A stretch of 64,000 nt of DNA. Origin: Escherichia coli. GTDB taxonomy: Bacteria > Pseudomonadota > Gammaproteobacteria > Enterobacterales > Enterobacteriaceae. Below the pieces are notes generated by a model. That model worked only from the letters and a program-made list of their open reading frames with translations, did no database searches and had not been told where the DNA came from. Shown here piece by piece: positions 14,359-64,000 of the stretch (position 1 is its first letter; every line of letters begins with the position of its first letter). A program made the position numbers and the translations under genes. The stretch is from the NCBI RefSeq assembly GCF_024502345.1, contig NZ_JALDNN010000001.1, one strand, 5' to 3'.

Positions 14359-15124
14359 TGCTCTCTCCGGTTATGATCACATCGATCCCTTTCTCTTCCA
14401 GCGCCTGACGAAACGCCGGATCGATACCTGCGTCGGTAATCAGCTTATCGACGCTTTCAAGACTGCAAACTACGTTGGGGCTTTTACGGCCAAACTTTGA
14501 TGAGTCCGCCATCAAAATCACTTCGCGCGCGGCATTGCACATTGCCTTACTGACGGTATAAACCTCGTTGAAGGTGGTTACGCCCGCATTGAGATCGATG
14601 CCGTCGGTGCCCATAAACAATTTATCGAAACTGAAATGTTCGAAGGCATTCTCTGCCAGCTGTCCGTGAAATGAGGCCGATTTTTTACGAAACGTTCCGC
14701 CTGGCATCAGGATAGTTTGTTCGTTATCCAGTTCGGATAGCGCATTGACGATATGCAGGCTGTTGGTCATCACCGTGATGTTATTAAAGCGCGAGAGCAG
14801 GGGAACCATCTGCAAAACGGTACTGCCAGCATCAAGAATGATCGAATCGCCATCATGGATAAAACTAACGGCAGCTTCTGCAATCAGCTCTTTCTTGTGG
14901 GTGTTGATGAGTGTTTTATGATCGATAGGCGGATCGGATTCCTCTTTATTCAACACCACTCCGCCATAAGTACGAATGACGGTTCCGGCATGTTCCAGAA
15001 TGACCAGATCTTTGCGAATGGTTGTGCCTGTGGTGTCAAAGTATTGCGCCAATTCTTCAACCGAGCATTTACCCTGCTTTTGCAGATACTCCAGAATGGC
15101 GGCCTGACGCTGACGAGGTTTCAT
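14351..15124 (-). CDS. srlR: DeoR-family sorbitol operon repressor SrlR
   Basis: 257-aa ORF with N-terminal HTH; gut operon context. Confidence 0.85.
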
Positions 15125-22333: not shown

Positions 22334-24964
22334 ATGAGCAAGAGCACCGCTGAGATCCGTCAGGCGTTTCTCGACTTTTTCCATAGTAAGGGACATCAGG
22401 TAGTTGCCAGCAGCTCCCTGGTACCCCATAACGACCCAACTTTGTTGTTTACCAACGCCGGGATGAACCAGTTCAAGGATGTGTTCCTTGGGCTCGACAA
22501 GCGTAATTATTCCCGCGCTACCACTTCCCAACGCTGCGTGCGTGCGGGTGGTAAACACAACGACCTGGAAAACGTCGGTTACACCGCGCGTCACCATACC
22601 TTCTTCGAAATGCTGGGCAACTTCAGCTTCGGCGACTATTTCAAACACGATGCCATTCAGTTTGCATGGGAACTGCTGACCAGCGAAAAATGGTTTGCCC
22701 TGCCGAAAGAGCGTCTGTGGGTTACCGTCTATGAAAGCGACGACGAAGCCTACGAAATCTGGGAAAAAGAAGTAGGGATCCCGCGCGAACGTATTATTCG
22801 CATCGGCGATAACAAAGGTGCGCCATACGCATCTGACAACTTCTGGCAGATGGGTGACACTGGTCCGTGCGGCCCGTGCACCGAAATCTTCTACGATCAC
22901 GGCGACCACATTTGGGGTGGCCCTCCGGGAAGTCCGGAAGAAGACGGCGACCGCTACATTGAGATCTGGAACATCGTCTTCATGCAGTTCAACCGCCAGG
23001 CCGATGGCACGATGGAACCGCTGCCGAAGCCGTCTGTAGATACCGGTATGGGTCTGGAGCGTATTGCTGCGGTGCTGCAACACGTTAACTCTAACTATGA
23101 CATCGACCTGTTCCGCACGTTGATCCAGGCGGTAGCGAAAGTCACTGGCGCAACCGATCTGAGCAATAAATCGCTGCGCGTAATCGCTGACCACATTCGT
23201 TCTTGTGCGTTCCTGATCGCGGATGGCGTAATGCCGTCCAATGAAAACCGTGGTTATGTACTGCGTCGTATCATTCGTCGCGCAGTGCGTCACGGTAATA
23301 TGCTCGGCGCGAAAGAAACCTTCTTCTACAAACTGGTTGGTCCGCTGATCGACGTTATGGGCTCTGCGGGTGAAGACCTGAAACGCCAGCAGGCGCAGGT
23401 TGAGCAGGTGCTGAAGACTGAAGAAGAGCAGTTTGCTCGTACTCTGGAGCGCGGTCTGGCGTTGCTGGATGAAGAGCTGGCAAAACTTTCTGGTGATACG
23501 CTGGATGGTGAAACTGCTTTCCGTCTGTACGACACCTATGGCTTCCCGGTTGACCTGACGGCTGATGTTTGTCGTGAGCGCAACATCAAAGTTGACGAAG
23601 CTGGTTTTGAAGCAGCAATGGAAGAGCAGCGTCGTCGGGCGCGCGAAGCCAGCGGCTTTGGTGCCGATTACAACGCAATGATCCGTGTTGACAGTGCATC
23701 TGAATTTAAAGGCTATGACCATCTGGAACTGAACGGCAAAGTGACCGCGCTGTTTGTTGATGGTAAAGCGGTTGATGCCATCAATGCAGGCCAGGAAGCT
23801 GTGGTCGTGCTGGATCAAACGCCATTCTATGCGGAATCCGGCGGTCAGGTTGGTGATAAAGGCGAACTGAAAGGCGCTAACTTCTCCTTCGTGGTGGAAG
23901 ATACGCAGAAATACGGCCAGGCGATTGGTCACATCGGTAAACTTGCTGCGGGTTCTCTGAAAGTGGGCGACGCTGTGCAGGCTGATGTTGATGAGGCTCG
24001 TCGCGCCCGTATTCGTCTGAATCACTCCGCAACGCACCTGATGCACGCTGCGCTGCGCCAGGTTCTGGGTACTCATGTATCGCAGAAAGGTTCACTGGTT
24101 AACGACAAGGTGCTGCGCTTCGACTTCTCACACAACGAAGCGATGAAACCAGAAGAGATTCGTGCGGTCGAAGACCTGGTGAACGCACAGATTCGTCGCA
24201 ATTTGCCGATCGAAACCAACATCATGGATCTCGAAGCGGCGAAAGCGAAAGGTGCGATGGCGCTGTTCGGCGAGAAGTATGATGAGCGCGTACGCGTGCT
24301 GAGCATGGGCGATTTCTCCACCGAGCTGTGTGGCGGTACTCACGCCAGCCGCACTGGTGATATTGGTCTGTTCCGCATCATCTCTGAATCGGGTACTGCT
24401 GCAGGCGTTCGTCGTATCGAAGCGGTAACCGGAGAAGGTGCTATCGCCACCGTTCATGCAGACAGCGATCGCTTAAGCGAAGTCGCACATCTGCTGAAAG
24501 GCGATAGCAATAATCTGGCTGATAAAGTGCGCTCAGTACTGGAACGTACGCGTCAGTTAGAAAAAGAACTACAACAGCTTAAAGAACAAGCTGCCGCACA
24601 GGAGAGCGCAAATCTTTCCAGTAAGGCAATTGATGTTAATGGTGTTAAGCTGTTGGTTAGCGAGCTTAGCGGTGTTGAGCCGAAAATGTTGCGTACCATG
24701 GTTGACGATTTAAAAAATCAGCTGGGGTCGACAATTATCGTGCTGGCAACGGTAGCCGAAGGTAAGGTTTCTCTGATTGCAGGCGTATCTAAGGACGTCA
24801 CAGATCGTGTGAAAGCAGGGGAACTGATTGGTATGGTCGCTCAGCAGGTGGGCGGCAAGGGTGGTGGACGTCCTGACATGGCGCAAGCCGGTGGTACGGA
24901 TGCTGCGGCCTTACCTGCAGCGTTAGCCAGTGTGAAAGGCTGGGTCAGCGCGAAATTGCAATAA
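22334..24964 (+). CDS. alaS: Alanine--tRNA ligase AlaS
   Basis: 876-aa ORF starting [24 protein letters not shown], the class II AlaRS N-terminus; the 609-aa antisense ORF is rejected. Confidence 0.97.
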
Positions 24965-25699: not shown

Positions 25700-25792
25700 G
25701 GTGAGGTGGCCGAGAGGCTGAAGGCGCTCCCCTGCTAAGGGAGTATGCGGTCAAAAGCTGCATCCGGGGTTCGAATCCCCGCCTCACCGCCA
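25700..25792 (+). tRNA. serV: tRNA-Ser (anticodon GCU)
   Basis: 93-nt cloverleaf GGTGAGGTGGCCGAGAGG...CGCCTCACCGCCA with long variable arm and anticodon loop CCTGCTAAG. Confidence 0.9.
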
Positions 25793-25795
25793 TTT

Positions 25796-25872
25796 GCATC
25801 CGTAGCTCAGCTGGATAGAGTACTCGGCTACGAACCGAGCGGTCGGAGGTTCGAATCCTCCCGGATGCACCA
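25796..25872 (+). tRNA. argV: tRNA-Arg (anticodon ACG)
   Basis: 77-nt GCATCCGTAGCTCAGCTGGATAGAGTACTCGGCTACGAACCGAGCGGTCGGAGGTTCGAATCCTCCCGGATGCACCA. Confidence 0.9.
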
Positions 25873-26007
25873 TATTCTCCGTAACCTTCAGCGATGAAGG
25901 TATGGAAGAGGTGGCGGTACTAACCGCAGGCACCAGGGAGAATAACGTTGCTTTAGCAACGGCCCGAAGGGCGAGCCGCAAGGCGAGTAATCCTCCCGGA
26001 TGCACCA
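25873..26007 (+). repeat. Structured spacer element ending in a tRNA-Arg 3-prime-end mimic (copy 1)
   Basis: 135-nt unit starting TATTCTCCG with four short hairpins and ending GAGTAATCCTCCCGGATGCACCA, duplicating the 3-prime terminus of the upstream tRNA-Arg. Confidence 0.7.
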
Positions 26008-26071
26008 TCTCTTACTTGATACGGCTTTAGTAGCGGTATCAAAAAATCTGCAGTAAAGTAAGTTTCCCGAT

Positions 26072-26148
26072 GCATCCGTAGCTCAGCTGGATAGAGTACT
26101 CGGCTACGAACCGAGCGGTCGGAGGTTCGAATCCTCCCGGATGCACCA
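26072..26148 (+). tRNA. argY: tRNA-Arg (anticodon ACG)
   Basis: Identical 77-nt tRNA-Arg sequence, second copy. Confidence 0.9.
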
Positions 26149-26210
26149 TCTCTTACTTGATATGGCTTTAGTAGCGGTATCAATATCAGCAGTAAAATAA
26201 ATTTCCCGAT

Positions 26211-26287
26211 GCATCCGTAGCTCAGCTGGATAGAGTACTCGGCTACGAACCGAGCGGTCGGAGGTTCGAATCCTCCCGGATGCACCA
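26211..26287 (+). tRNA. argZ: tRNA-Arg (anticodon ACG)
   Basis: Identical 77-nt tRNA-Arg sequence, third copy. Confidence 0.9.
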
Positions 26288-26422
26288 TATTCTCCGAAAT
26301 CTTCAGCAATGAAGATATCGAAGAGGTAGCGGAATTAACCGCAGGCACCAGGGAGGATAACGTTGCGCCAGCAACGGCCCGAAGGGCGAGCCGCAAGGCG
26401 AGTAATCCTCCCGGATGCACCA
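26288..26422 (+). repeat. Structured spacer element ending in a tRNA-Arg 3-prime-end mimic (copy 2)
   Basis: Same 135-nt unit after argZ with a few substitutions. Confidence 0.7.
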
Positions 26423-26485
26423 TCTCTTACTTGATATGGCTTTAGTAGCGATATCAATATCAGCAGTAAAATAAATTTTCCCGAT

Positions 26486-26562
26486 GCATCCGTAGCTCAG
26501 CTGGATAGAGTACTCGGCTACGAACCGAGCGGTCGGAGGTTCGAATCCTCCCGGATGCACCA
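26486..26562 (+). tRNA. argQ: tRNA-Arg (anticodon ACG)
   Basis: Identical 77-nt tRNA-Arg sequence, fourth copy. Confidence 0.9.
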
Positions 26563-50050: not shown

Positions 50051-51451
50051 TCAGCGCGTATTATGAACGGGTGTTTTTTGCCACAATACCAGCTTTTTCC
50101 AGCGAGCCATAATTGGCACGGTACAGATAATCCCTATCGCTAATAAGCCGGTGGAGATCACTTCTAACTGTTGCGCCGGACGGAATAGCATCACTACCAA
50201 CACAAAGGTAATAAAGCCGATGACCAGCCAGGTGAGCCAAGGATAAAGCCACATTCGCAAGCGAATTTCGCTTCCTTCTGCTCGCAGAATTTTGCGCATC
50301 CGCAACTGTGAAACGGCGATGACTAAATAAACCAGCAGGGCGATAGCGCCGGAGCTGTCGATCAGAAATTTAAATACCTTCGCAGGCGCGTAATAGTTCA
50401 CCACCACCGTTAAGAATGCCGCGCCGGTGGAGAGTAACACCGCCACGTACGGGGTTTTACTGCGGTTGATTTTACCCATTACCGCAGGCGCATCTCCGCG
50501 ACGGCTTAAGGAGTAGAGCATCCTGGAAGCGGTATACAGAGCCGAGTTCAGGCAACTGGTTACGGAAAGTAATATCACGCAGTCCATGATCAATTTCGCA
50601 TGGGGAATATTGAGCAATTCCAGTACCGAGCGATAAGAACCGACGGCTTTTAGTCCGGGCATATTCCACGGAATTAATGCCACGACGACAAAAATAGAAC
50701 ATAAATAGAAGATAGAAATACGCCAGATAACCGAGTTGGTGGCGCGGACAATATGTTTTTCCGGCGTGTCGGATTCCGCGGCGGCAATGGTGACAATTTC
50801 TGCGCCCATAAACGAGAACATGGTGATCAACATCGCGCTTAATACCGCACCGAAGCCGTTGGGCATAAAGCCGCCGCTATCCCACAATCTTGAGATCCCG
50901 CTCACGTCGGCATACGGGTAAAAACCGCTAATTGCGACTGCACCAAGGAAAATAAAGGCCAGGATAGCGATGACTTTGCACAGCGCCAGCCAGAACTCAA
51001 ATTCGCCGTAGTTTTTAACGCTTAATAAATTACTGCCAGTTAAGGCAAGGGTAATGACGAGGGAAAATAACCAGATGGGAATGCCTGGAACCCACGAGTG
51101 CAGGATCATGGCGGCGATGTTGGCTTCCAGCGGGATAACCAGTACCCAAAACCACCAGTACAACCAGCCGATGGTATAACCCGCCCAACGACCAATAGCT
51201 TTATCGGCATAGGTGGAAAACGAACCGGTATCGGGCGTGGCAACCGCCATTTCCGCCAACATCCGCATAATCATAACCACCAGTAGCCCGGCGAACAGAT
51301 AGGCCAGTAATACCGCCGGGCCCGCTTCGGCGATGGCGACGCTGGAACCGACAAACAGACTTGCGCCGATAACACCGGCAATAGACAACATGGTGACGTG
51401 GCGTGATTTCAGCCCGCCGCCTAACTCATGTGGTTGCGATGATTGCCCCAT
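50051..51451 (-). CDS. gabP: GABA permease GabP (APC family)
   Basis: ORF 50051-51514; start set at MGQSSQPHELGGGLKSRHVTM; 466 aa. Confidence 0.9.
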   Translation of the reverse strand: MGQSSQPHELGGGLKSRHVTMLSIAGVIGASLFVGSSVAIAEAGPAVLLAYLFAGLLVVMIMRMLAEMAVATPDTGSFSTYADKAIGRWAGYTIGWLYWWFWVLVIPLEANIAAMILHSWVPGIPIWLFSLVITLALTGSNLLSVKNYGEFEFWLALCKVIAILAFIFLGAVAISGFYPYADVSGISRLWDSGGFMPNGFGAVLSAMLITMFSFMGAEIVTIAAAESDTPEKHIVRATNSVIWRISIFYLCSIFVVVALIPWNMPGLKAVGSYRSVLELLNIPHAKLIMDCVILLSVTSCLNSALYTASRMLYSLSRRGDAPAVMGKINRSKTPYVAVLLSTGAAFLTVVVNYYAPAKVFKFLIDSSGAIALLVYLVIAVSQLRMRKILRAEGSEIRLRMWLYPWLTWLVIGFITFVLVVMLFRPAQQLEVISTGLLAIGIICTVPIMARWKKLVLWQKTPVHNTR

Positions 51452-51539
51452 CCTGAATCCTCTCGAAAGTGTGTCACTTGGGAGAGCGCCCCGACATTTC
51501 CCGCGTCGGGTCACGCGTTTAATTGTTATTGATTCTTTT

Positions 51540-51950
51540 TGCCGGAGAGCGGCTCCGCCTTATCCGGCCGACATAGATTTATTCCTGTTCACGTACAGAT
51601 TGTCGGATGCGGCGTAAACGCCTTATCCGACCTGGATCCCCGTAGGCCGGACAAGACGCGCAGCGTCGCCTCCGGCATGGGTGCGCCGATTGTCGGATGC
51701 GGCGCAAACGCCTTATCCGACCTACATTTCCGTAGGCCGGACAAGACGCGTAAGCGTCGCCTCCGGCATGGTGCGCCGAATGTCGGATGCGGCGTTAACG
51801 CCTTATCCAACCTACACTCTCGTAGGCCGGACAAGACGCGCAGCGTCGCCTCCGGCATGGTGCGCCGATTGTCGGATGCGGCGTTAACGCCTTATCCGAC
51901 CTACACTCTCGTAGGCCGGACAAGACGCGCAGCGTCGCCTCCGGCATGGG
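51540..51950. repeat. REP/BIME tandem cluster (about 5 units) between gabT and gabP
   Basis: Repeated TGTCGGATGCGGCG(T/C)AAACGCCTTATCCGACCTAC...CGTAGGCCGGACAAGACGCGCAGCGTCGCCTCCGGCATGG units. Confidence 0.8.
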
Positions 51951-51957
51951 GGCGGTG

Positions 51958-53238
51958 CTACTGCTTCGCCTCAGCAAAACACTGGCCGATGATCTCCAGA
52001 CCCTGACGGATCTGAGCGTCTTCAATGGTGAGCGGTACAAGGATGCGCAGCACGTTGTAATACGGGCCGCAGGAGAGAAGAATCAGGCCCTTATCGCGGG
52101 CGCGCGCCACGATCTCGGCGGTGAGTTTTGCGTCCGGTTTGCTGTGATCGCCATCTTCAAACAGCTCGATGGCGATCATCGCCCCCAGACCGCGTACGTC
52201 GCCGATCTCCGTGTGTTTTTCGGCGATCGCCAGCAATCCGTCTTTCAGCTTCTGCCCCAGATCGTTGGCTTTCTGCAGCAGATTTTCCTGCTCGAACACC
52301 TTCAACACTTCCAGCGCCGCCACGCAGGCAATCGGATTACCGGCATAGGTGCCGCCCAGCCCGCCTGGAGCGACGGCATCCATCACTTCCGCGCGCCCGG
52401 TGACGCCCGCCAGCGGGAAACCGCCTGCGATCGATTTCGCAAACGTGGTGAGATCCGGCGCCACGCCCATTTGCTCCATCGCAAACAGCGTGCCGGTACG
52501 CCCTGCGCCGCTCTGCACTTCATCGGCAATCAGCATGATCCCGTGCTCGTCACACAGCGTGCGTAAACGCTGCATAAAAGCAGGCGTCGCGGCGTAGAAA
52601 CCGCCTTCGCCCTGAACCGGCTCAATCACGATGGCGGCGATATCTTCCGGCGCAGCGTCATTTTTAAAAATTCGGTGAATGCTAGCGATAGCGTCATCTT
52701 CACTGATGCCGTGCAGCGGGCAAGGATAAAGCGCGCGATAAACGTGCCCAGGCATCAGCCCCATGCCCGCAGAGTACGGATTCACCTTGCCGGTCAGCGC
52801 CAGCGTGTAATGCGTGCGCCCGTGGTACGCGCCGCTAAAGGCGATAGTTCCGCTACGTTTGGTGGCGGCGCGGGCGATTTTCACCGCGTTTTCCACCGCT
52901 TCGGAACCGGTCGTAACCAGCAGCGTTTTCTTGGCGAAATCGCCTGGCACCTTCTGATTCATAATCTCGCACAGCTCCAGATACGGCTCGTAGGCCAGCA
53001 CCTGGAAGCAGGTGTGCGACAGTTTTTTCAACTGCGCTTCCACTGCCGCAACCACTTTCGGATGCAGGTGCCCGGTATTGAGCACCGCAATGCCGCCCGC
53101 GAAATCAAGATACTCACGGCCTTCAACGTCCCACACCCGGCAGTTTTCCGCGCGATCAGCGAAAATGGGGTGAATTTGCCCAACGCCACGAGGAATTGCC
53201 TGACTGCGGCGCTGCATTAACTCTTTATTGCTGCTCAT
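51958..53238 (-). CDS. gabT: 4-aminobutyrate aminotransferase GabT
   Basis: 426-aa PLP class III aminotransferase ORF. Confidence 0.9.
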   Translation of the reverse strand: MSSNKELMQRRSQAIPRGVGQIHPIFADRAENCRVWDVEGREYLDFAGGIAVLNTGHLHPKVVAAVEAQLKKLSHTCFQVLAYEPYLELCEIMNQKVPGDFAKKTLLVTTGSEAVENAVKIARAATKRSGTIAFSGAYHGRTHYTLALTGKVNPYSAGMGLMPGHVYRALYPCPLHGISEDDAIASIHRIFKNDAAPEDIAAIVIEPVQGEGGFYAATPAFMQRLRTLCDEHGIMLIADEVQSGAGRTGTLFAMEQMGVAPDLTTFAKSIAGGFPLAGVTGRAEVMDAVAPGGLGGTYAGNPIACVAALEVLKVFEQENLLQKANDLGQKLKDGLLAIAEKHTEIGDVRGLGAMIAIELFEDGDHSKPDAKLTAEIVARARDKGLILLSCGPYYNVLRILVPLTIEDAQIRQGLEIIGQCFAEAKQ

Positions 53239-53251
53239 TCGCGTTCTCCAG

Positions 53252-54700
53252 TTAAAGACCGATGCACATATATTTGATTTCTAAGTAATCTTCGATGCCA
53301 TACTTCGAACCTTCACGACCCAGACCCGAGGCTTTAATGCCGCCGAACGGGGCCACTTCATTGGAAATAATCCCGGTATTGATGCCGACGATGCCGTACT
53401 CCAGCGCCTCGCCCACGCGGAAGACGCGACTTAAATCACGGGCATAGAAATAGGCGGCAAGGCCAAACTCGGTGTCATTGGCTTGCGCGATCACATCGGC
53501 TTCATCTTTAAAACGGAACAGCGGGGCGAGGGGGCCGAAGGTCTCTTCTTTCGACACTTTGGCGTTGGCCGGCACGTCCACCAGAATGGTGGGCTGGAAG
53601 AAGTTACCGCCGCGTTCGTGTGCTTTACCACCGCAAACCACGCGTGCGCCTTTCTCCAGCGCATCGGCAATATGCTCTTCTACTTTTGCTACTGCTTTTT
53701 CATCAATCAGCGGCCCGATAGTGACGCCTTTCTCCAGCCCGTCACCGATGTGCAGTTTGCTCACCGCCTGCTGCAATTTTTCGGCAAAGCGGTCATACAC
53801 GCCGTCCTGCACGTATAAACGGTTGGCGCAGACGCAGGTTTGCCCGGCGTTGCGGAATTTCGAGGCCAGTGCGCCTTCCACGGCTTTATCGAGATCGGCA
53901 TCGTCAAAGACGATAAACGGCGCGTTGCCGCCCAGCTCCAGCGACACTTTTTTGATGTCTTTCGCGCACTGTTCCATTAACTGGCGGCCAATTCCGGTCG
54001 AACCGGTAAACGACAGCTTGCGCACCAGCGGATTGCTGGTCAGTTCGTTACCCACCGCGCCCGCCGAACCGGTGACCACGTTAAATACACCAGCCGGAAT
54101 GCCCGCGCGGATCGCCAGTTCTGCCAGCGCCAGCGCAGAGAACGGCGTCTGACTGGCGGGCTTCAGCACCATCGTGCAGCCTGCCGCCAGCGCCGGACCG
54201 GCTTTGCGGGTAATCATCGCCGCCGGGAAGTTCCACGGCGTGATAGCCGCGGTGACGCCAATCGGCTGCTTGATAACAATCAGGCGTTTATCGGCCTGAT
54301 GACCGGGAATGGTGTCGCCATAAATACGTTTGCCTTCTTCGGCAAACCACTCAATAAAGGAGGCGGCGTAGCTGATTTCGCCTTTCGCTTCTGCCAGTGG
54401 TTTGCCCTGTTCGAGGGTCATCAGGCGCGCTAAATCGTCCTGATGCTCCATCATCAAATTGAACCAGTTGCGCAGAATGTTGGCGCGTTCTTTGGCGGTG
54501 AGCGCACGCCAGGCGGGCAGGGCGCGGTTGGCGGCGTCGATAGCAGCGCGGGTTTCATCAGCGCCCATTTTGGGTACGCTACCCAGCTTGTCGCCGTTCG
54601 CCGGATTGGTGACGTCGATGACCTCGCCATTGTTGGCGTCCAGCCATTCCCCGTTAATCAACGCCTGCTGGCGGAATAAGTTACTGTCGTTAAGTTTCAT
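53252..54700 (-). CDS. gabD: Succinate-semialdehyde dehydrogenase GabD
   Basis: 482-aa aldehyde dehydrogenase ORF. Confidence 0.9.
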   Translation of the reverse strand: MKLNDSNLFRQQALINGEWLDANNGEVIDVTNPANGDKLGSVPKMGADETRAAIDAANRALPAWRALTAKERANILRNWFNLMMEHQDDLARLMTLEQGKPLAEAKGEISYAASFIEWFAEEGKRIYGDTIPGHQADKRLIVIKQPIGVTAAITPWNFPAAMITRKAGPALAAGCTMVLKPASQTPFSALALAELAIRAGIPAGVFNVVTGSAGAVGNELTSNPLVRKLSFTGSTGIGRQLMEQCAKDIKKVSLELGGNAPFIVFDDADLDKAVEGALASKFRNAGQTCVCANRLYVQDGVYDRFAEKLQQAVSKLHIGDGLEKGVTIGPLIDEKAVAKVEEHIADALEKGARVVCGGKAHERGGNFFQPTILVDVPANAKVSKEETFGPLAPLFRFKDEADVIAQANDTEFGLAAYFYARDLSRVFRVGEALEYGIVGINTGIISNEVAPFGGIKASGLGREGSKYGIEDYLEIKYMCIGL

Positions 54701-54722
54701 CGCTACATCCTGTTTTCAAAGG

Positions 54723-55991
54723 TTATTGATTAAATGCGGCGTGTAAGGCATCCACACTACGTGCCGCTCGCAGCGTGCGTCCGGGGTTACTCTGGCTTGC
54801 CAACAGCGTTTGTACCTTGCTGACAATATGCGCACCAATAGGAATTGCTGATGTCGCTGCCGGGGAGGGCGCATTGCAGGTGTGGATCGTGCGCGGGGTG
54901 GTGACAAACAGAAAATCGTCAATCAGCTTGCCGTCCGGCGATACCGCCTGCGCCCGCACACCGGCGGGCCAGGGCTGGAGATCGCTTAACGAAAGCCGGG
55001 GACAATACTTTTGCACCAGCCGCAGATAGCCGCTTTTGCACAGCGAGTTTTTCATCTCGCCCAGTCCTGAGCGTAGATGGTTTTGCAGCACCCGGCGAAT
55101 CCCCGACGAGCCCAAAATCTCCAGCGTGTCGCTAAATGAGAAGTCGCGCTTGCGATAGCCTTCGCGTTTGAACGCCAGCACTGCGTTTGGCCCAACGGTG
55201 ACGCTACCGTCGATCATGCGGGTGAGATGAACGCCTAAAAACGGCATTGCCGGGTCGGGGATGGGGTAAATCAGGTGGTTAACAATCTGGTTATGCTCCG
55301 GCGCCAGGCGGAAATACTCGCCACGGAACGGGCAGATAATAAAGCCCGGTTCGAGGCCGAGCATTTTCACCAGCCGGTCAGCCATCAGCCCGGAACAGCT
55401 AATCAGCGTTGACGCTTCGTATTCGCCACCCTGATGGGTACGTATCACCACGCCGTTTTTATGCTCACTAAGGCCGCTGACTTCGGCGTTATAGATAATC
55501 TCGCCGCCTCTGGCCTGGAAGATTTTTGCCATCGCCGCCGTGACTTCGCGGTAGCTGACAATGCCGCTGGACGGCACAAAAATACCGCCAAGCCCGGTGA
55601 TATTCGGTTCGCGCTCGCGCAGTTCATCGGCGTTTAACCACTCGCGCTCGATACCGTTCGCGGCCGTGCGTTCCCATAAGGCGCGCATCCGTTCCATTTC
55701 GAGTTCAGACGTGGCGACCAGCATCTTGCCGCAGTTGTCGTAGCGAATGCCGTTTTGATCGCAAAAGGCTTTGGTGGCGCGGTTTCCCGCCAGGCAAAAC
55801 TGCGCCTTCAGACTGCCGGGCGTGTAATAAACCCCGGCATGGATCACGCCGCTGTTGTGGCCCGTCTGGTGACAGGCCGGGCCGGACTCTTTTTCCAGCA
55901 ACGCAATGCGGGCATCCGGGTAGACATCAATCAGTTGCATGGCGGTCGACATGCCGATGATGCCACCGCCAATAATCACAAAATCATACAT
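54723..55991 (-). CDS. lhgO: L-2-hydroxyglutarate oxidase/dehydrogenase LhgO (YgaF)
   Basis: 422-aa FAD-dependent ORF with N-terminal GGGIIG dinucleotide motif. Confidence 0.85.
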   Translation of the reverse strand: MYDFVIIGGGIIGMSTAMQLIDVYPDARIALLEKESGPACHQTGHNSGVIHAGVYYTPGSLKAQFCLAGNRATKAFCDQNGIRYDNCGKMLVATSELEMERMRALWERTAANGIEREWLNADELREREPNITGLGGIFVPSSGIVSYREVTAAMAKIFQARGGEIIYNAEVSGLSEHKNGVVIRTHQGGEYEASTLISCSGLMADRLVKMLGLEPGFIICPFRGEYFRLAPEHNQIVNHLIYPIPDPAMPFLGVHLTRMIDGSVTVGPNAVLAFKREGYRKRDFSFSDTLEILGSSGIRRVLQNHLRSGLGEMKNSLCKSGYLRLVQKYCPRLSLSDLQPWPAGVRAQAVSPDGKLIDDFLFVTTPRTIHTCNAPSPAATSAIPIGAHIVSKVQTLLASQSNPGRTLRAARSVDALHAAFNQ

Positions 55992-56009
55992 CCGCTCAAT
56001 TCCTTTGCG

Positions 56010-57101
<1,092 letters not shown>

Positions 57102-57323
57102 CTATTGTGATCAAAAACAACAAATTAGTAACATTTAACGTAGGGTATTAAGGCAAAGTGAGACAGGAAATGAATAACTAAAGCAACAGGTTAGGGGGGA
57201 ATTACCATCAGAGAACAGATTATCTGGTCGATAAAAAACGGTAAATGGCTTCACTGCAAAATGACCGTCAGTAAACTAAACATATTATCTGCCCCGTTTT
57301 AGCGGGGCAGATATAACATTAAA

Positions 57324-59012
57324 TTACAAATAGAGATAGTTCAGCGGTTCTCCTGTTTTCCCTAAAAGAAGAGCGCTACGCCCAGGAATATTGATATTTA
57401 GAGTTCCGCCTCTAAGCATAAATGCTTTACCAGGGGGGATAATTTTTCGGGTATTATTAATAATAATGTTAACGCTATTACTCCCCATGTTTTTATATTT
57501 TCCAGGTTGCAATTTGTTAGGCCAGGCACCTTCAACTTCTTCGTTTCCTTTATTTATTATAACTAGTCCATCATGAGGAGAGTGATTAATGTTCACCGAA
57601 TCCCCACGACTAAAGGCCAGAACGTTTTTAGTTGCAAATACACCCTCAAATGCGCTCCATATTCCTGCTTTATCTATATATAATGCGTGGAATTCATTGT
57701 AGAGCTGCTGATAGGTAGAGCAACCTTTATTAAGCCACGCCTCACCGCCGACACGCGTCGACCCATCATAATTTTTAATTTCAGTCGTTGATTTTAATAC
57801 TTGGCCATCCCAGTAAACTAAAGGCCTGCTGAACGGGAGAGCGGCCATATATGCCATTGCTAATTGTTCATCTTGTTGATGGTTAAATAGAAAGTCATTG
57901 AAAAGATTGCCATTGTTAGGAAAAACGTGGTTAATGTTAATCAATATCCGTCTTTTTGATGGGATGCTTGAGATTGTTGAACCCGGTTTTGATGCAAGGG
58001 TTTGGAGATCGCCACCAAATGAAAAAGCTTTTATCGTCTTCATGAGCAATGAAAAATCAATGGCGCTTAAATCATCTCTTTCATAAAGCAGCGATGACAT
58101 TTGTTGTTCATCCAACTGACAAGTTACCAGATATTCCATGTAATTCATAACGGCTTTTTCATGATATTTTGGGTTAAATAAGTTAGTATTGTGTAATCGC
58201 TCATTATAATTTTTAAGCGGTGGGGTTATTGATCTTTCTATTTGTTCATGTTTTGAGTGTTTTGCCGCATCATAACGTAAACCTCGTACGCCATATTTTC
58301 GCATTTCACGAACGTATTGATTTTGCAGCATAATAACCTGGTCACTTTTGGGGGTTGTTTTAGGCATTCCATTTAAACGCTTTTCTTTTAATGCATGGAG
58401 GTTTTCCCATTCATCCTTAGAAATATTATCTTTACTTGCTTCGAAGTCTTTTGCAGTGAGATGTATATCTTCTGGATGGATTTGTTTACGTTCTTTTGTT
58501 ACTGGATCTATAGTAAATGGAATCAAAACCTGACCTTGCCAATAGCCAGGGATACCACCTTCTATATCTTTACTGATCTTCGCTCGTATATCAGCAGAGG
58601 GATAATCCAGGTCATTTTTACCACTACCCCCGATTCCCATAAAGTTAAAGGTATAATCAGGAATGATATCGATACCAAATTTTTTAGCATCTTTAACCAA
58701 TGCGATAAAATCCTGCAAATCTCCCATTGGATTATGGATGGTACAAAGATCTTCGGGTTGATAAGCGTGAAACCAGTAACCTTTTTCTTCTTCGGGAGTT
58801 TCTGGTCCGTCGGCGCGGAAAGTTGTCACTGGAGGGATTTGTATATACCCATAATGGCAACGTGCAAACTCAGACATATTTTCCCTGATTTGCTGGTAGG
58901 TGGCATTAAAAGCATGAAGAATCGCTTCGCCAGGTTTTTTGGGGGTGATGATTTCACATTGTGATTTCTGAACAGCAGTAAGGGATTTACGCTCAAGTGT
59001 TTGCCGTAGATG
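57324..59012 (-). pseudogene. ygaQ: GH13 (alpha-amylase-like) protein YgaQ, 5-prime-truncated by IS3
   Basis: 517-aa ORF with alpha-amylase region II-like motif GLRYDAAKH; the frame stays open upstream of the first Met as far as the IS3 end at 59013; AT-rich. Confidence 0.7.
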
Positions 59013-59077
59013 TGATCTTACCCAGCAATAGTGGACACGCGGCTAAGTGAGTAAACTCTCAGTCAGAGGTGACTCAC

Positions 59078-59377
59078 ATGACAAAAACAGTATCAACCAG
59101 TAAAAAACCCCGTAAACAGCATTCGCCTGAATTTCGCAGTGAAGCCCTGAAGCTTGCTGAACGCATCGGTGTTACTGCCGCAGCCCGTGAACTCAGCCTG
59201 TATGAATCACAGCTCTACAACTGGCGCAGTAAACAGCAAAATCAGCAGACGTCTTCTGAACGTGAACTGGAGATGTCTACCGAGATTGCACGTCTCAAAC
59301 GCCAGCTGGCAGAACGGGATGAAGAGCTGGCTATCCTCCAAAAGGCCGCGACATACTTCGCGAAGCGCCTGAAATGA
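59078..59377 (+). CDS. insE: IS3 OrfA (InsE)
   Basis: [50 protein letters not shown]... Confidence 0.9.
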
Positions 59378-60240
59378 AGTATGTCTTTATTGAAAAACAT
59401 CAGGCTGAGTTCAGCATCAAAGCAATGTGCCGCGTGCTCCGGGTGGCCCGCAGCGGCTGGTATACGTGGTGTCAGCGGCGGACAAGGATAAGCACGCGTC
59501 AGCAGTTCCGCCAACACTGCGACAGCGTTGTCCTCGCGGCTTTTACCCGGTCAAAACAGCGTTACGGTGCCCCACGCCTGACGGATGAACTGCGTGCTCA
59601 GGGTTACCCCTTTAACGTAAAAACCGTGGCGGCAAGCCTGCGCCGTCAGGGACTGAGGGCAAAGGCCTCCCGGAAGTTCAGCCCGGTCAGCTACCGCGCA
59701 CACGGCCTGCCTGTGTCAGAAAATCTGTTGGAGCAGGATTTTTACGCCAGTGGCCCGAACCAGAAGTGGGCAGGAGACATCACGTACTTACGTACAGATG
59801 AAGGCTGGCTGTATCTGGCAGTGGTCATTGACCTGTGGTCACGTGCCGTTATTGGCTGGTCAATGTCGCCACGCATGACGGCGCAACTGGCCTGCGATGC
59901 CCTGCAGATGGCGCTGTGGCGGCGTAAGAGGCCCCGGAACGTTATCGTTCACACGGACCGTGGAGGCCAGTACTGTTCAGCAGATTATCAGGCGCAACTG
60001 AAGCGGCATAATCTGCGTGGAAGTATGAGCGCAAAAGGTTGCTGCTACGATAATGCCTGCGTGGAAAGCTTCTTTCATTCGCTGAAAGTGGAATGTATCC
60101 ATGGAGAACACTTTATCAGCCGGGAAATAATGCGGGCAACGGTGTTTAATTATATCGAATGTGATTACAATCGGTGGCGGCGGCACAGTTGGTGTGGCGG
60201 CCTCAGTCCGGAACAATTTGAAAACCAGAACCTCGCTTAG
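59374..60240 (+). CDS. insF: IS3 OrfB transposase (InsF; DDE)
   Basis: 288-aa ORF overlapping insE in the -1 frame. Confidence 0.9.
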
Positions 60241-60324
60241 GCCTGTGTCCATATTACGTGGGTAGGATCATAATGCTTTGGTTGCTGGCGTATCTGACAG
60301 CTTCTTCGGCGTGAAGGTCGTTGT

Positions 60325-61381
60325 GGCTTTGTTGAATAAATCAGATTTCGGGTAAGTCTCCCCCGTAGCGGGTTGTGTTTTCAGGCAATACGCACGCTTT
60401 CAGGCATACCTGCTTTCGTCATTTTGTTCAGCGCTCGTACCAGGGCCATAGCCTCTGCAACCTGACCATCGTAGTCACGCAGTGTCAGTGAACCCCCGAA
60501 CAGCTGTTTTACCCGGTACATCGCCGTTTCCGCTATCGAGCGACGGTTGTAATCTGTTGTCCATTTCCACCGCGCATTACTCCCGGTCATTCGCTGATTA
60601 GCCACTGCACGGTTACGGTCTGCATATTCACCGGGCCAGTAACCCGCACCTTTTCGGGGAGGGATAAGCGCGCTGATTTTCTTACGCCGCAGTTCATCGT
60701 GACATAGCCGGGTATCGTAAGCGCCATCGGCGGCGGCTGACCTGATTTTCCGGTGGGTTTGCCGGATTAACCCGGGGAAGGCCTCTGAGTCCGTAACGTT
60801 GTTCAGCGACAGGTCAGCGCAGATGATTTCATGTGTTTTACTGTCAACGGCGAGATGCAGCTTACGCCAGATACGGCGGCGTTCCTGGCCATGCTTTTTG
60901 ACTTTCCACTCGCCTTCACCGAAGACCTTCAGCCCGGTGGAATCAATTACCAGGTGTGCGATTTCACCCCGGGTGGGCGTTTTGAAACTGACATTAACCG
61001 ACTTTGCCCGCCTGCTGACACAGCTGTAATCCGGGCAGCGTAGCGGAACGTTCATCAGAGAAAAAATGGAATCAATAAAGCCCTGCGCAGCGCGCAGGGT
61101 CAGCCTGAATACGCGTTTAATGACCAGCACAGTCGTGATGGCAAGGTCAGAATAGCGCTGAGGTCTGCCTCGTGAAGAAGGTGTTGCTGACTCATACCAG
61201 GCCTGAATAGCTTCATCATCCAGCCAGAAAGTTATGGAGCCACGGTTGATGAGGGCTTTATTGTAGGTGGGCCAGTTGGTGATTTTGAACTTTTGCTTTG
61301 CCACGGAACGGTCTGCGTTGTCGGGAAGATACGTGATCTGATCCTTCAACTCAGCAAAAGTTCGATTTATTCAACAAAGCC
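60325..61381 (-). mobile_element. IS903-group (IS5 family) insertion sequence, copy 1 (1057 bp)
   Basis: Terminal inverted repeats GGCTTTGTTGAATAAATC at 60325-60342 and 61364-61381; internal 322-aa transposase ORF. Confidence 0.85.
60381..61349 (-). CDS. IS903-group transposase
   Basis: 322-aa ORF ending ...LVRALNKMTKAGMPESVRIA, recognised as IS903/IS102-type Tnp. Confidence 0.85.
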   Translation of the reverse strand: MKDQITYLPDNADRSVAKQKFKITNWPTYNKALINRGSITFWLDDEAIQAWYESATPSSRGRPQRYSDLAITTVLVIKRVFRLTLRAAQGFIDSIFSLMNVPLRCPDYSCVSRRAKSVNVSFKTPTRGEIAHLVIDSTGLKVFGEGEWKVKKHGQERRRIWRKLHLAVDSKTHEIICADLSLNNVTDSEAFPGLIRQTHRKIRSAAADGAYDTRLCHDELRRKKISALIPPRKGAGYWPGEYADRNRAVANQRMTGSNARWKWTTDYNRRSIAETAMYRVKQLFGGSLTLRDYDGQVAEAMALVRALNKMTKAGMPESVRIA

Positions 61382-61480
61382 TGTCCCCATTTGTAAATGG
61401 CTATGCTTAGTCCACATAGGTTAATGGTGTGATTATTAATTCTTTAACTAAATCAAGATAGTTAATGCATCATGGGAGAG

Positions 61481-61900
61481 TTATGCGGCAATAACTTTGC
61501 ATTTTTGAGACGAAACATAGTCACTCCACCATTGCATGAGAACCACCCGTTCAGTGAGATACTCTGCACGATTGTAGGCTGCAATTATTTCATCTTTCTT
61601 CGAGTGGGCAAGGGCGGCTTCTAAGACATCAGTCCTAAACTTGCCAGACTCCTCAGCAGCCGTTCTAGCAATGGATCGCATACCGTGAGCTACAAGCTCA
61701 CCTCCGAAACCCATACGGATTATGGCCGCATTAGCTGTTTGTTCATGCATGTGATTGAGTGGAGCTTTGATACTGGGGAACACCCACTCTCTATGCCCGC
61801 TGATGACTTTCATTAAATCCAAAACTCGCAAAGCTTCTTTGCTCAGTGGAACTTTGTGAGGCTTCTTCATTTTCATAAACTCCGCCGGGATGTTCCACAT
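61481..61900 (-). pseudogene. P4-type tyrosine integrase, C-terminal remnant A
   Basis: 139-aa ORF with catalytic-domain residues (...LVAHGMRSIARTAAEESG...EAALAHSKKDEIIAAYNRAEYLTERVVLMQWW); an in-frame stop two codons upstream of the Met shows N-terminal truncation. Confidence 0.7.
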
Positions 61901-62062
61901 GCCAGTTTCAATATCAATAGCCGCCTTTCGACGGTGTAGTGGGGAGAGTATTGCTTACAAACGTAATGAAATTGTTTGAGTAGCTAGGCTACTGCATAGG
62001 ATTATTTTGTTCTGTTAATATATCCGTTAATATAGATAGATTGATCCAATTGAGTTTAAGGA

Positions 62063-63772
62063 ATGAGTATGTTTCAGATATCAGCTGGAGTGTTCTTTGA
62101 TTTAGATAAAATAGAAAAACACGATGGCGCATTTGTTTTTTATTCAAATGTTGATGTGTCTTTCTCGGTGGAAAACACCTCCCCTCTTTTTAAAGCAAAT
62201 AAAATAAGTCATGATGGTATAAACTGTTATGTGGTAAACTATACTCTCCTGACCGAAAAACCAGAACGAATTGAAGCTGGAGTCGTAGTTAGGGCTGGTG
62301 ATGAGGATTATAGGCAACAATTTATTTTATTATGGGAATTCTATTTTGATTGTGTGGCTAGAGTAGAAAAAGAATCGGTTAAAAAAATATGTGCATTATC
62401 AAATTTTAATAAACATCACTCAAAAATTGCGCTTGAAGTTGCCCCATATTTAGTGGAGATTAACCGAAGAGTTTCATTTGATGATGTCTCTGGGTTTTCT
62501 GCTTTTATTAAAGATGTAGTGAATCTAAATAGATCTGCCTTTAAATCTTTAATGGCAGCGTTAAAAATAATTAGTGATTCAAAAGAATCATTGTCAACCA
62601 ACTTTGACCTGACTTATTCCATGTTAGTCTATGCCTTGGAGTCTTTGTCTCAAAGAAATGATAACTATAAGTCTGATTGGGATGACTACGATCAAAAAAC
62701 CAGAGGTGAATTAGAGTCTGTATTTGAGCATATGCCTGGTGAGGATGTTTGTAAAATTAAATCAATACTTATTGAAGGCAAACAATTCAGATTACAAAAA
62801 AGGTTCAAAGATTTTATACTGAAAAATCTTGAAGAAAATTATTTCAATGAAACAGAGAGATATCCAATCCGCTATAGCTTCCTTAGTAGAGCTTTAGATA
62901 ATTTATACAAAATCAGGTCTTCTTTTGTCCATGAGCTTAAGCCACTTGATGCAATGATCTCGAAAGCCTACAATCCTGTTGGTGATTGTCTGGTTCTTTT
63001 TGGCGAACCTCACTTCAGTTACTCTGGATTGCTTCGACTTCTTCGCCATGTGATAATAAATTTTTGCCGTAAAAACTACAGTCAAAAAAGAGAGTATGTT
63101 AATTGGGTGATGGAAACATCGGGTGTAATGGTTGCAGAGATATCTGCACAATATTGGCTCTGGAATGCAGACGGATTTACAGCTAAAAGTATAGCGAAGT
63201 GGTTTAGTGAATACCTAAATATGTTAAATTTAGGCGAAGTCACTGATTTGCAGTCTATCATGGACAAAATTGAGATAATCTATGACCAATCCAAAAAAGA
63301 ATATAAAAATGGGTTGTTGTATTTTTATTTCTTATATAACTTAATGCATAATGGAAATAAGGGTGAATGGCTTGAGTTTGCGAACAAGCGAAGTTCTATA
63401 CTTGTTTGTGATATATATTGGTATTCATGCTCTCCATATTTATATAAATCATTTACTAATGTTTCAAATGGTATTGCTGATATAAAAACATTGAGAAACT
63501 TTTTGTCTTGTTTTAACGAATATGATAAAAATAAATTTAAGCCAAATCGTTTAAATCTCCCTGCAATGACCGAAGTAATTATGTTGGCTTGCGCAGCAAA
63601 TTCATTCTTCAGAATTGGAATGTATCAAGACTATGTTTTAATGGGCAATAGAGCGATGAGAGAAATTGCTTCAGTAAAAGATGTATTTTATTATATAAAA
63701 GAACGATTAAGTAATTCACAACTTATTGAATTGGACGAGTGCTTGAGATTGTATAGAAAAAAAGGGGGCTAA
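62063..63772 (+). CDS. Hypothetical protein, 569 aa, AT-rich orphan
   Basis: Complete ORF; RBS AAGGA at 62058-62062 favours the second ATG at 62069; clearly A+T-rich relative to core genes; no family recognised; R-S-S-F-V-H at residues 285-290. Confidence 0.7.
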   Translation: MSMFQISAGVFFDLDKIEKHDGAFVFYSNVDVSFSVENTSPLFKANKISHDGINCYVVNYTLLTEKPERIEAGVVVRAGDEDYRQQFILLWEFYFDCVARVEKESVKKICALSNFNKHHSKIALEVAPYLVEINRRVSFDDVSGFSAFIKDVVNLNRSAFKSLMAALKIISDSKESLSTNFDLTYSMLVYALESLSQRNDNYKSDWDDYDQKTRGELESVFEHMPGEDVCKIKSILIEGKQFRLQKRFKDFILKNLEENYFNETERYPIRYSFLSRALDNLYKIRSSFVHELKPLDAMISKAYNPVGDCLVLFGEPHFSYSGLLRLLRHVIINFCRKNYSQKREYVNWVMETSGVMVAEISAQYWLWNADGFTAKSIAKWFSEYLNMLNLGEVTDLQSIMDKIEIIYDQSKKEYKNGLLYFYFLYNLMHNGNKGEWLEFANKRSSILVCDIYWYSCSPYLYKSFTNVSNGIADIKTLRNFLSCFNEYDKNKFKPNRLNLPAMTEVIMLACAANSFFRIGMYQDYVLMGNRAMREIASVKDVFYYIKERLSNSQLIELDECLRLYRKKGG

Positions 63773-63932: not shown

Positions 63933-64000
63933 GGCTTTGTTGAATAAATCGAACTTTTGCTGAGTTGAAGGATCAGATCACGTATCTTCCCGACAACGCA
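63933..64000 (+). mobile_element. IS903-group insertion sequence, copy 2 (partial, runs off window), inverted relative to copy 1
   Basis: 63933-64000 is the exact reverse complement of 61314-61381 (the transposase-proximal end of copy 1). Confidence 0.85.

Follow-up and report, generated by a model that had tools for sequence, protein, structure and literature searches.

IS3 is an element of about 1258 bp with TG...CA terminal inverted repeats and an orfA/orfB frameshift, and its simple insertion creates a 3-bp target-site duplication. According to work cited in PMC8860574 (refs 21 and 30, including Sekine et al. 1994), IS3 also makes adjacent deletions of various lengths, and the deletions by IS3 transposase observed in PMC8860574 had endpoint homologies of 6 bp or less. 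In a long-term evolution experiment, 14 of 14 duplication-less deletions at IS150, a member of the IS3 family, were adjacent deletions from pre-existing copies, and such deletions often extended over time (PMC11708052). The gene ygaQ has been treated as an H-NS-silenced, horizontally acquired gene (PMC7229825). In Escherichia coli K-12 W3110 it is split into a 110-aa ygaQ and ygaR, and the only published activity is that of a nuclease, from the N-terminal 110-aa K-12 fragment (PMC4725251).

We analysed a window of 64,000 nucleotides of E. coli DNA in which ygaQ abuts an IS3 copy. The features around this joint are as follows.

57324-59012, minus strand: ygaQ', what remains of a GH13-like gene of 750 codons (codons 189-750 and the stop)
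58877-58879, minus strand: first in-frame ATG of ygaQ'; this codon is internal in the intact gene, where it encodes Met234, and does not mark the native start
59010-59012, no strand: ATG, left flank of IS3, with no copy on the right side
59013-60270, plus strand: intact IS3, 1258 bp; orfA 59078-59377, orfB 59374-60240
60271-60273, plus strand: TAA, right flank of IS3, the first 3 bp of the island sliver
60271-60324, plus strand: 54-bp sliver of the ssrA island, kept between two IS-associated deletions
60325-61381, minus strand: IS903 copy 1 (IS5 family), 1057 bp; transposase ORF 60381-61349, minus strand
61382-61915, minus strand: 3' fragment of the ssrA-island integrase gene and downstream DNA; C-terminal 139 codons at 61481-61900

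Like ygaQ/ygaR of K-12, the locus in the window is AT-rich and GH13-like and has its place between csiD and ileY. Unlike in W3110, the IS3 joint has physically removed the 5' quarter of the gene and, with it, all of the 110-aa part. The joint resembles the described adjacent deletions of IS3 in its intact element, variable loss at one end, lack of a duplication and little or no endpoint homology (PMC8860574). However, those events took place on plasmids with engineered transposase expression, whereas this is a natural chromosomal joint whose mechanism we infer. With the IS150 deletions it shares duplication-less joints and a pre-existing IS anchor, and their stepwise growth parallels the nested breakpoints found here (PMC11708052). 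IS150 is a different member of the family, and the order of events was given there by archived ancestors, which this locus lacks.

The ygaQ remnant

The original prediction was that ygaQ had lost its 5' end to IS3. On the minus strand, the open frame extends from the element boundary at 59012 to 57324 and comprises 562 codons and a stop. The closest relatives, FDAARGOS_944 and FDAARGOS_943, are 99.9% identical to the window up to that boundary and have an intact ygaQ of 750 codons. The last 1500 bp of ygaQ' show 99.87% identity to the gene of FDAARGOS_944 (L007 18325-20577, with window position 59012 corresponding to L007 20013). Between Met 58877 and IS3 lie 45 stop-free codons, a run expected from composition alone with a chance of about 4%. 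They are homologous to residues 189-233 of the intact 750-aa FDAARGOS_944 protein, which identifies the upstream open frame as real ygaQ. Alignment with the intact gene places the native start 188 codons beyond the IS3 boundary and not at Met 58877, so ygaQ is truncated at its 5' end, as predicted. At this locus, the window lacks ygaQ codons 1-188 (the first quarter), the start codon, the promoter and the neighbouring tRNA gene ileY, and no tRNA-Ile was found anywhere in the window.

The ygaQ remnant is a dead gene fragment. No promoter-like site was found in 58700-59300, and no fusion ORF spans the ygaQ-IS3 joint. Expression of the remnant from IS3 was considered and ruled out, as an in-frame stop occurs at about the eleventh codon inside IS3 and neither a start codon ahead of Met234 nor a promoter-like site is present. 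The intragenic promoter fragment 'ygaQ 1.1' of K-12 corresponds to 58050-58199 of the window. In many strains ygaQ is a pseudogene interrupted by internal stops. We recommend that the window's 517-codon ORF, which starts at 58877, be annotated as a 5'-truncated pseudogene and not as a gene. The strain is without the whole N-terminal part of YgaQ, the sole part with published activity (PMC4725251), and the ileY copy of AUA-decoding tRNA-Ile is missing from this position as well.

The remnant has a GC content of 38.8%, compared with 56.9% for gabT-csiD and 51.5% for the whole window, which bears out the earlier description of ygaQ as AT-rich; the suggestion that it is acquired DNA agrees with this composition and with the literature (PMC7229825). 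The earlier remark that GLRYDAAKH resembles alpha-amylase region II also holds, since the motif aligns with GFRYDAAKH of Bacillus subtilis alpha-amylase and with GLRWDAAKH among solved amylases, and carries the region II pattern G-x-R-x-D-x-x-K-H with the nucleophile Asp. Like the GH13 alpha-amylases (Bacillus subtilis; PDB 1BAG, 1UA7, 3DC0), YgaQ has an alignable barrel N-terminus (ILHAFN...IQ.PP), the region II sequence G.RYDAAKH and a C-terminal all-beta domain (Pfam Alpha-amylase_C PF02806, residues 649-738, E = 2.6e-5). Unlike them, it is very divergent, has an extra N-terminal region of about 215 aa and has no known substrate. Solved amylases align with the barrel from residue ~215-218 onward, and PDB amylases match residues 215-320 at E = 1e-7 to 5e-7. 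Profile scores lend weak support to the placement of YgaQ in GH13: Pfam Alpha-amylase PF00128 matches residues 264-519 of the intact protein (E = 5e-4, score 19.9), and NCBIfam amylase models score 16-22 bits against cut-offs of 749-1269. In the window remnant the putative region IV lacks its His-Asp pair through a D551V change (NINHV versus NINHD in the relative); NINHD was assigned to region IV by pattern alone, as the solved-structure alignments stop short of the motif.

The IS3 copy and its flanks

The IS3 in the window starts with TGATCTTACCC and ends with GGGTAGGATCA. Its terminal inverted repeats are imperfect (28 of 40 positions match), and orfB starts at 59374, before orfA ends at 59377. 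Thirteen other E. coli IS3 copies have exactly the same termini and align end to end with 99.8-100% identity; the copy in TW10590 is identical and is annotated with an intact programmed-frameshift transposase. The locus has at least three or four IS3 alleles. That of the window differs from the 26561-type IS3 at positions 200 and 1214, where it has G200 and C1214 in common with the LR-64-1 copy, to which it corresponds along the full length; the copies of LR-64-1 and APEC_AN-25 are each one SNP away.

No 3-bp repeat surrounds this element, as had been noted originally: ATG at 59010-59012 faces TAA at 60271-60273. Simple IS3 insertions served as a positive control: the four sampled in the region all had perfect 3-bp duplications (TAT, TTC, GAT and TAA). 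Re-evaluation of the IS3 ends recovered no duplication. Moving the ends is ruled out by the 13 copies that end identically and by the sequence TAATGC, which is native to the island and directly follows AAACG in the IS3-free locus L012. The missing duplication thus reflects lost DNA and not mis-set ends; it bears on the history of this IS3 copy, not on its identity as IS3. At the joint, just 1 bp is common to ygaQ and the IS3 end.

The right flank consists of exactly 54 bp, as originally measured, and IS903 copy 1 starts at 60325. A sequence search traced this spacer to island DNA 42 bp downstream of the parB stop codon in strains bearing the ssrA island, with 100% matches in eight of the compared loci (L003-L006 and L009-L012; e.g. 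L004 9465-9518, and 56667-56720 of the 26561 composite). The island encodes an integrase and a relaxase. An annotated 'IS3 family transposase' relic overlapping the 54-mer (L012 14579-14690) was considered as a possible cause of the clustering of right breakpoints; tblastn with IS3 OrfA/OrfB and blastn with IS3 gave nothing meaningful against the spacer that carries this relic.

In strains without the joint, the two IS3 flanks are collinear, in the same orientation and apart, with the ygaQ 5' part, ileY and island DNA between them. Their separation is at least 1.2 kb and reaches ~32 kb (left and right flanks at 23296 and 56667 in the 26561 composite, and at 6113 and 9465 in L004). Collinear but separated flanks, together with the absence of the intervening DNA, support the earlier proposal of an IS-mediated deletion or rearrangement.

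The right junction (IS3 followed by TAATGC...) is common to LR-64-1 (NZ_AP027588.1) and APEC_AN-25 (NZ_CM130024.1) over 154 of 154 bases. In both, however, the left breakpoint lies 1.77 kb further left, at a point equivalent to window 57239 in the csiD-ygaQ intergenic region, so that ygaQ is wholly gone. Besides the junction and the near-identical IS3, they have the same integrase fragment as the window; unlike the window, they keep parB-parB-recombinase-integrase, lack IS903 and differ by ~4.3% in the gab backbone. Left of IS3 the window shows 99.97% identity to FDAARGOS_944 against only ~95.7% to LR-64-1, whereas right of IS3 it is 100% identical to LR-64-1. The window, LR-64-1 and APEC_AN-25 have the right IS3 junction by common descent.

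The ygaQ-IS3 junction of the window (CAAGTGTTTGCCGTAGATG followed by TGATCTTACCC) occurs in none of 5,426 complete E. coli genomes, and none of them has IS3 at the ygaQ ATG site, where a simple insertion would be defined on its other side by GGGTAGGATCA followed by ATGTTCTGGATTG. A simple insertion at the TAA site, defined by CACTTAAACGTAA followed by TGATCTTACCC, was likewise found in 0 of 5,426, and neither flank site has a duplication-bearing precursor among these genomes.

Routes to the joint

The loss of DNA very probably occurred by one of the two known IS3-associated routes, adjacent deletion or recombination between two IS3 copies. We give even chances to a transposase-mediated adjacent deletion, which is slightly favoured over two-copy recombination. 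For this route we infer that the transposase was the agent of loss and that events ran in the following order. The integrative island that lies between ileY and ssrA would already have contained IS3, and the right end of the element would have been fixed beside the 54-bp sequence that follows parB. Starting from the left end, the IS3 transposase would then have carried out at least one intramolecular adjacent deletion, reaching ygaQ codon 188/189 and removing the promoter, the N-terminal 188 codons, a 559-bp spacer, ileY and any island or ypjC/ypjA DNA remaining between. IS3 would have stayed in place with its right flank; since only this flank was kept, the original 3-bp duplication would have been destroyed. 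One fixed IS3 end with a variable other end, as seen between the window and LR-64-1/APEC_AN-25, is the signature of adjacent deletion. Also in favour of this route are the duplication-less IS3 copies of seven further genomes (below), the absence of IS3 at the ygaQ ATG site and of a simple insertion at the TAA site from 5,426 genomes, and the published adjacent deletions of IS3 and IS150. An island with an integrase and a relaxase can carry an internal IS3 junction into different backbones without recombination in IS3.

Against an adjacent deletion, the backbone haplotype switches exactly at IS3, a pattern that a crossover inside the element would also give. A precursor with a TAA-duplicated IS3 at the TAA site, as this route proposes, is also absent from the 5,426 genomes. 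One-step adjacent deletion and local hopping followed by recombination have the same sequence outcome.

A contender of rather less than even probability is homologous recombination between two direct IS3 repeats, one in ygaQ with an ATG duplication and one by the 54-bp sequence with a TAA duplication, either within one chromosome or after uptake of LR-64-1-like DNA with one crossover inside IS3. All DNA between the copies would be deleted or replaced, leaving one IS3 with hybrid flanks, which is the exact product seen, with a haplotype switch precisely at IS3. Recombination between IS copies is a standard cause of missing duplications (PMC11708052), and simple IS3 insertions do occur in the interval, in four of the 14 sampled genomes and in the integrase gene of strain 2452. 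However, an extra, unobserved insertion is needed, with IS3 at the ygaQ site in 0 of 5,426 genomes and ygaQ intact in the two nearest relatives, and no hybrid endpoint matches a known simple insertion site. The LR-64-1-like G200 and C1214 would, in addition, require a crossover in the first 200 bp or a resident copy of the same allele. The several IS3 alleles at the locus point to frequent IS3 insertions here, as recombination between two copies needs.

Mis-joining of contigs through the repeated IS3, giving chimeric flanks, is highly unlikely. IS3 is multicopy, with a median of four matching places per genome for the junction query and five for a query also containing IS903 and ygaQ, and the ygaQ-IS3 junction is unique to the window sequence. 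However, both flanks derive from the same local interval in the right order and orientation, the right junction exists independently in two complete genomes, and similar joints are common at the locus.

Even less probable is a one-step event in which IS3 entered a double-strand break as the deletion formed, without staggered cuts by the transposase. This has been hypothesized for some IS5 and IS481 elements and would place a duplication-less IS at the centre of a deletion (PMC11708052). However, LR-64-1/APEC_AN-25 have IS3 and its right flank in common with the window by descent but another left breakpoint, so that IS3 was at the right junction before at least one left-side event. A simple insertion upstream of a complete short ygaQ that begins at Met 58877, its duplication since erased by a point mutation, is refuted. 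It has only an ATG with a nearby AGGGA in its favour, against intact homologues of 750 aa that align through the 45 upstream codons, island rather than ygaQ DNA right of IS3, and a missing ileY.

Recurrence at the locus and the island remnant

Duplication-less IS3 copies with collinear DNA on both sides were found here in seven further sampled genomes, at seven other breakpoint pairs. In all, the 14 sampled genomes and the window have nine distinct pairs, and the endpoints of those seven all differ from the four sites of simple insertion for which flanks were extracted. A single ancestral IS3 (the copy with a GAT duplication that strain 26561 has in its ankyrin gene) is ruled out as the sole source by the presence of at least three or four alleles. 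Strain 2452 was also rejected as the precursor of the integrase breakpoint of PigCaeca_2, its IS3 lying ~63 bp away at another site.

These counts tentatively suggest, as a possibility short of even chances, that the ygaQ-ileY-ssrA interval is a recurrent, lineage-independent hotspot of IS3 deletion, where resident copies erode outward on both sides. Islands integrated at ssrA may then be stripped repeatedly, with loss of ileY and ygaQ, in many E. coli lineages. If so, the question arises whether loss of AT-rich, H-NS-bound DNA is selected; and if the endpoints are true transposase products, the natural series would give an in vivo spectrum of IS3 adjacent deletions. The joint itself is ordinary, well-understood bacterial genome erosion, a known phenomenon that brings no new principle. 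It offers a clean natural example of IS3 and IS903 wearing down integrated islands, and its value is chiefly for annotation and strain history.

IS903 copy 1 shows the same deletion-joint signature as the adjacent IS3. It has 18-bp terminal inverted repeats at both ends and lacks the 9-bp target-site duplication (GGTCGTTGT versus TGTCCCCAT). In the 26561 composite, its flanking sequences lie at 56720 and 60283, and the element replaces 3,562 bp that contain parB, parB and the recombinase gene. An inversion between the two inverted IS903 copies was rejected as the cause of the missing duplication: neither flank is the reverse complement of the other, and the DNA between the copies runs collinear with that of the reference islands.

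The combined IS3-54mer-IS903 arrangement was found in no genome, nor were the IS903-int' joint and the joint at 61916. The ygaQ-IS3, 54-mer-IS903, IS903-int' and 61916 joints, absent from the 5,426 complete E. coli genomes, are thus precise lineage markers; they make up four of the five novel joints in this 5-kb stretch, the fifth being the left junction of IS903 copy 2 (63933). For a 569-aa ORF, Pfam, PHROGs and NCBIfam gave no function, and PADLOC gave a weak match only. LR-64-1 and APEC_AN-25 have an integrase fragment 100% identical to that of the window, which matches the NCBIfam integrase domain PRK09692 (E = 9e-48).

Truncation of ygaQ at the IS3 end

The elements on both sides of the joint lie as follows.

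Features at and to the right of the IS3 joint (window positions)
57324-59012, minus strand: ygaQ remnant, 562 codons without a stop between 59012 and its stop codon (57324)
59013-60270, orfA and orfB on the plus strand: IS3, 1258 bp, beginning TGATCTTACCC and finishing GGGTAGGATCA
60271-60324: spacer
60325-61381: IS903 copy 1, no 9-bp duplication (GGTCGTTGT vs TGTCCCCAT)
61481-61900, minus strand: island integrase, 3' fragment (C-terminal 139 codons)
62063-63772, plus strand: 569-aa ORF, 33% GC; in the ATCC 8739 P4-like satellite it lies between psu and int
63933-64000 (part within the window): IS903 copy 2, inverted relative to copy 1, 68/68 bases matching the reverse complement of the right end of copy 1

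The ygaQ frame was seen to stay open up to IS3 and was taken to have lost its 5' end there. Forty-five of its 562 codons lie upstream of the first ATG (58877), and the chance of such a stop-free run from composition alone is ~4%, so homology must decide whether they are coding. The gene is annotated as intact in FDAARGOS_944 and its sibling FDAARGOS_943 (2253 bp, 750 codons), and alignment to it confirmed the loss. Position 59012 corresponds to 20013 of the FDAARGOS_944 locus, where the CDS ends at 20577; therefore, 564 bp (188 codons), the native start and the promoter are missing from the window. These 45 upstream codons encode residues 189-233 of intact YgaQ, so the homologue does not start at the Met at 58877 (Met234). 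These alignments establish that the truncation is real. In all strains whose locus is intact, the next feature is the ileY tRNA gene ~560 bp past ygaQ, and ARAGORN found no tRNA-Ile over the whole window; ileY has been deleted from its position beyond ygaQ. The five tRNA genes in the window (Ser and four Arg, 25700-26562) are unrelated to it.

The ygaQ remnant is a dead fragment. No in-frame ATG, GTG or TTG lies between the joint and Met234, an in-frame stop sits inside IS3 no more than a dozen codons from the joint (at about codon eleven), and no promoter-like site was found in 58700-59300. The alignment of the GH13 barrel to solved amylases begins at residue ~215, so a product starting at Met234 would miss the first barrel strand. 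The sole amino-acid difference from the FDAARGOS_944 protein, D551V (codon 551, window 57925), falls in the NINHD motif, which resembles region IV (His-Asp) of GH13; it would fit relaxed constraint on an already dead gene, or may be due to chance.

As originally described, ygaQ is AT-rich (38.8% GC vs 56.9% for gabT-csiD) and carries GLRYDAAKH, resembling alpha-amylase region II. Published work treats it as horizontally acquired and silenced by H-NS (PMC7229825); the K-12 intragenic promoter fragment of that study maps to 58050-58199. Profile and pairwise matches indicate a GH13 affiliation that is real but distant: E = 5e-4 with Pfam Alpha-amylase, 2.6e-5 with Alpha-amylase_C and ~4e-7 with Bacillus subtilis amylases over the barrel N-terminus, where their GFRYDAAKH aligns to the YgaQ motif. 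Scores against NCBIfam alpha-amylase models were far under the cut-offs. In many strains ygaQ is a pseudogene with internal stops. It is split in K-12 W3110; for the 110-aa N-terminal product of that strain, 5'-flap ssDNA nuclease activity was reported, with overexpression giving mitomycin C resistance (PMC4725251). Residues D25 and D27, mutated in that study (PMC4725251), are present in intact YgaQ, within the 188 codons absent from the window.

DNA lost at the IS3 joint

Over its whole length IS3 aligns with 13 copies taken from other E. coli genomes (99.8-100% identity), which puts its ends beyond doubt; its terminal inverted repeats are alike at 28/40 positions. The flanking triplets do differ as noted (ATG on the left vs TAA on the right). 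Resetting the ends cannot rescue a duplication, because the IS3-free island of ST540 reads ...CACTTAAACG directly followed by TAATGCTTTGG across the right-flank position; TAA is thus part of the native island, and moving the boundary yields no repeat. The four simple IS3 insertions of this interval serve as an internal positive control: each has a perfect 3-bp duplication (TAT, TTC, GAT, TAA).

The ends of both elements bear out the reported distance of exactly 54 bp between IS3 and IS903 copy 1. This spacer is 100% identical to DNA 42 bp downstream of a parB stop codon in other strains, this parB being part of an ssrA-integrated island. Strain 26561 has the integrative island in full, next to ypjA-ypjCB-ileY-ygaQ.

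Order of the strain 26561 island, from the ssrA end towards ileY
First: integrase, recombinase, two parB genes
Second: spacer of ~1.4 kb
Third: hsdM, hsdS, hsdR
Fourth: IS1 and ankyrin-repeat genes
Fifth: IS3 with GAT duplication
Sixth: relaxase and further genes

On the 26561 composite (reference coordinates from this strain), the left flank of the window ends at 23296 and the right flank starts at 56667 in the same orientation. The flanks are thus collinear but apart in strains without the joint, which supports the proposed IS-mediated deletion or rearrangement; IS3 here securely marks where DNA was lost and is no simple insertion. The size of the loss depends on the ancestor: 1.2 kb (through ileY) is the minimum, with ~2.1 kb against NT1F34 and ~32 kb against 26561. 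As a strain-specific case of a well-known process the joint offers little that is new; its use lies in annotation and in typing the lineage.

In the ST540 locus, the RefSeq annotation has an 'IS3 family transposase' fragment with a frameshift (14579-14690, equivalent to DNA around window 60271-60294) that overlaps the start of the 54-mer; no similarity of this fragment to IS3 itself was found. Three IS3 right breakpoints (composite 56530, 56616, 56667) lie within 140 bp of it. IS1 copies in strain 2452, ST540 and JS316 also erode the island, disrupting ypjA and hsdS and adjoining ileY-proximal DNA, so several IS families contribute to the decay of the interval.

Routes to the IS3 joint

Among 5,426 complete E. 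coli genomes, not one has the ygaQ-IS3 junction. The junction of IS3 with the 54-mer is exact (154/154 bases) in LR-64-1 and APEC_AN-25, whose IS3 differs from ours by one SNP and which alone have an integrase fragment 100% identical to 61382-61919. However, their left breakpoint is at window 57239, so that all of ygaQ is gone whereas the window keeps a remnant, and their gab backbone diverges by ~4.3%. Seven more sampled genomes have duplication-less IS3 in the interval, each with its own breakpoint pair and collinear on both sides, counts that are not a frequency since the sample was biased by a ranking query containing IS3. Their left ends span composite 23432-24812, with one in DNA missing from the reference (locus L016); their right starts span 55001-56616, apart from that of PigCaeca_2 at 60600 (integrase gene) and that of TW10590 in DNA missing from the reference.

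Identity to FDAARGOS_944 is 99.97% over 50100-57239 and 99.9% over 53000-59012 (4 mismatches in 6013 bp). The gabT-csiD-ygaQ backbone (51700-59012) is a rare, divergent haplotype, 99.97% identical to FDAARGOS_944 and ~95.7-96.4% to four other strains compared; only three of ~5,400 genomes reach 99% identity. Just to its left, LR-64-1 and 26561 are 98.3% identical to the window (50100-51685).

Two established routes yield such a joint. In one, to which we give about even credence, the transposase of a resident IS3 would make an adjacent deletion. IS3 is known for such deletions, those seen with IS3 transposase having endpoints that shared at most 6 bp of homology (PMC8860574), and in the long-term evolution experiment 14/14 duplication-less IS150 deletions were adjacent deletions, often growing stepwise (PMC11708052). 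This route is favoured because the right junction is fixed and the left breakpoint variable, because no genome, nearest relatives included, has IS3 at the ygaQ site, and because the hybrid endpoints coincide with no known simple insertion site. The island's own integrase and relaxase also favour it, since an island-internal IS3 junction can thereby enter other backbones without a crossover in IS3.

In the other, two directly repeated IS3 copies would have recombined, possibly during uptake of foreign DNA. This is a serious but somewhat less probable possibility: the haplotype switches exactly at IS3, and IS3 inserts frequently in the interval, with several alleles present, but G200 and C1214, common to the IS3 of the window and LR-64-1 over its full length, argue weakly against an internal crossover. 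IS3 and its right flank are older than at least one left-side event, which disfavours a one-step capture of the element at a break (PMC11708052). Misassembly is unlikely given collinear flanks and a right junction independently observed in other genomes.

IS903 and the adjoining island DNA

The neighbourhood of the joint, with IS903 and the integrase fragment, displays the same process. In the reference island, 3,562 bp separate the flanks of IS903 copy 1; both parB genes and the recombinase have therefore been lost from the window. Two IS-anchored deletions thus lie 54 bp apart, and the sliver of that length is what remains between them; IS903 is known for adjacent deletions (PMC11708052). 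At 61916-61919 the integrase fragment meets DNA lying between psu and the integrase of the ATCC 8739 P4-like satellite at ssrA, which looks like a deletion across two islands in tandem at ssrA. The IS3-54-mer-IS903 arrangement, the junction of IS903 with the integrase fragment and the 61916 joint each occur in 0/5,426 genomes.

The satellite piece is cut at 63933 by the inverted IS903 copy 2. Between them the two copies enclose 2,551 bp, a layout like that of Tn903, with the far side of copy 2 outside the window. The psu-int position of P4 satellites is a known hotspot for anti-phage genes. The only match of the 569-aa ORF was a weak PADLOC hit to Cas13-ApeA (E = 7e-6, residues 150-275), with nothing in Pfam, PHROGs or NCBIfam, and we regard it as a candidate uncharacterised defence gene. 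It is now stranded between two IS903 copies, and the neighbouring integrases are both truncated.
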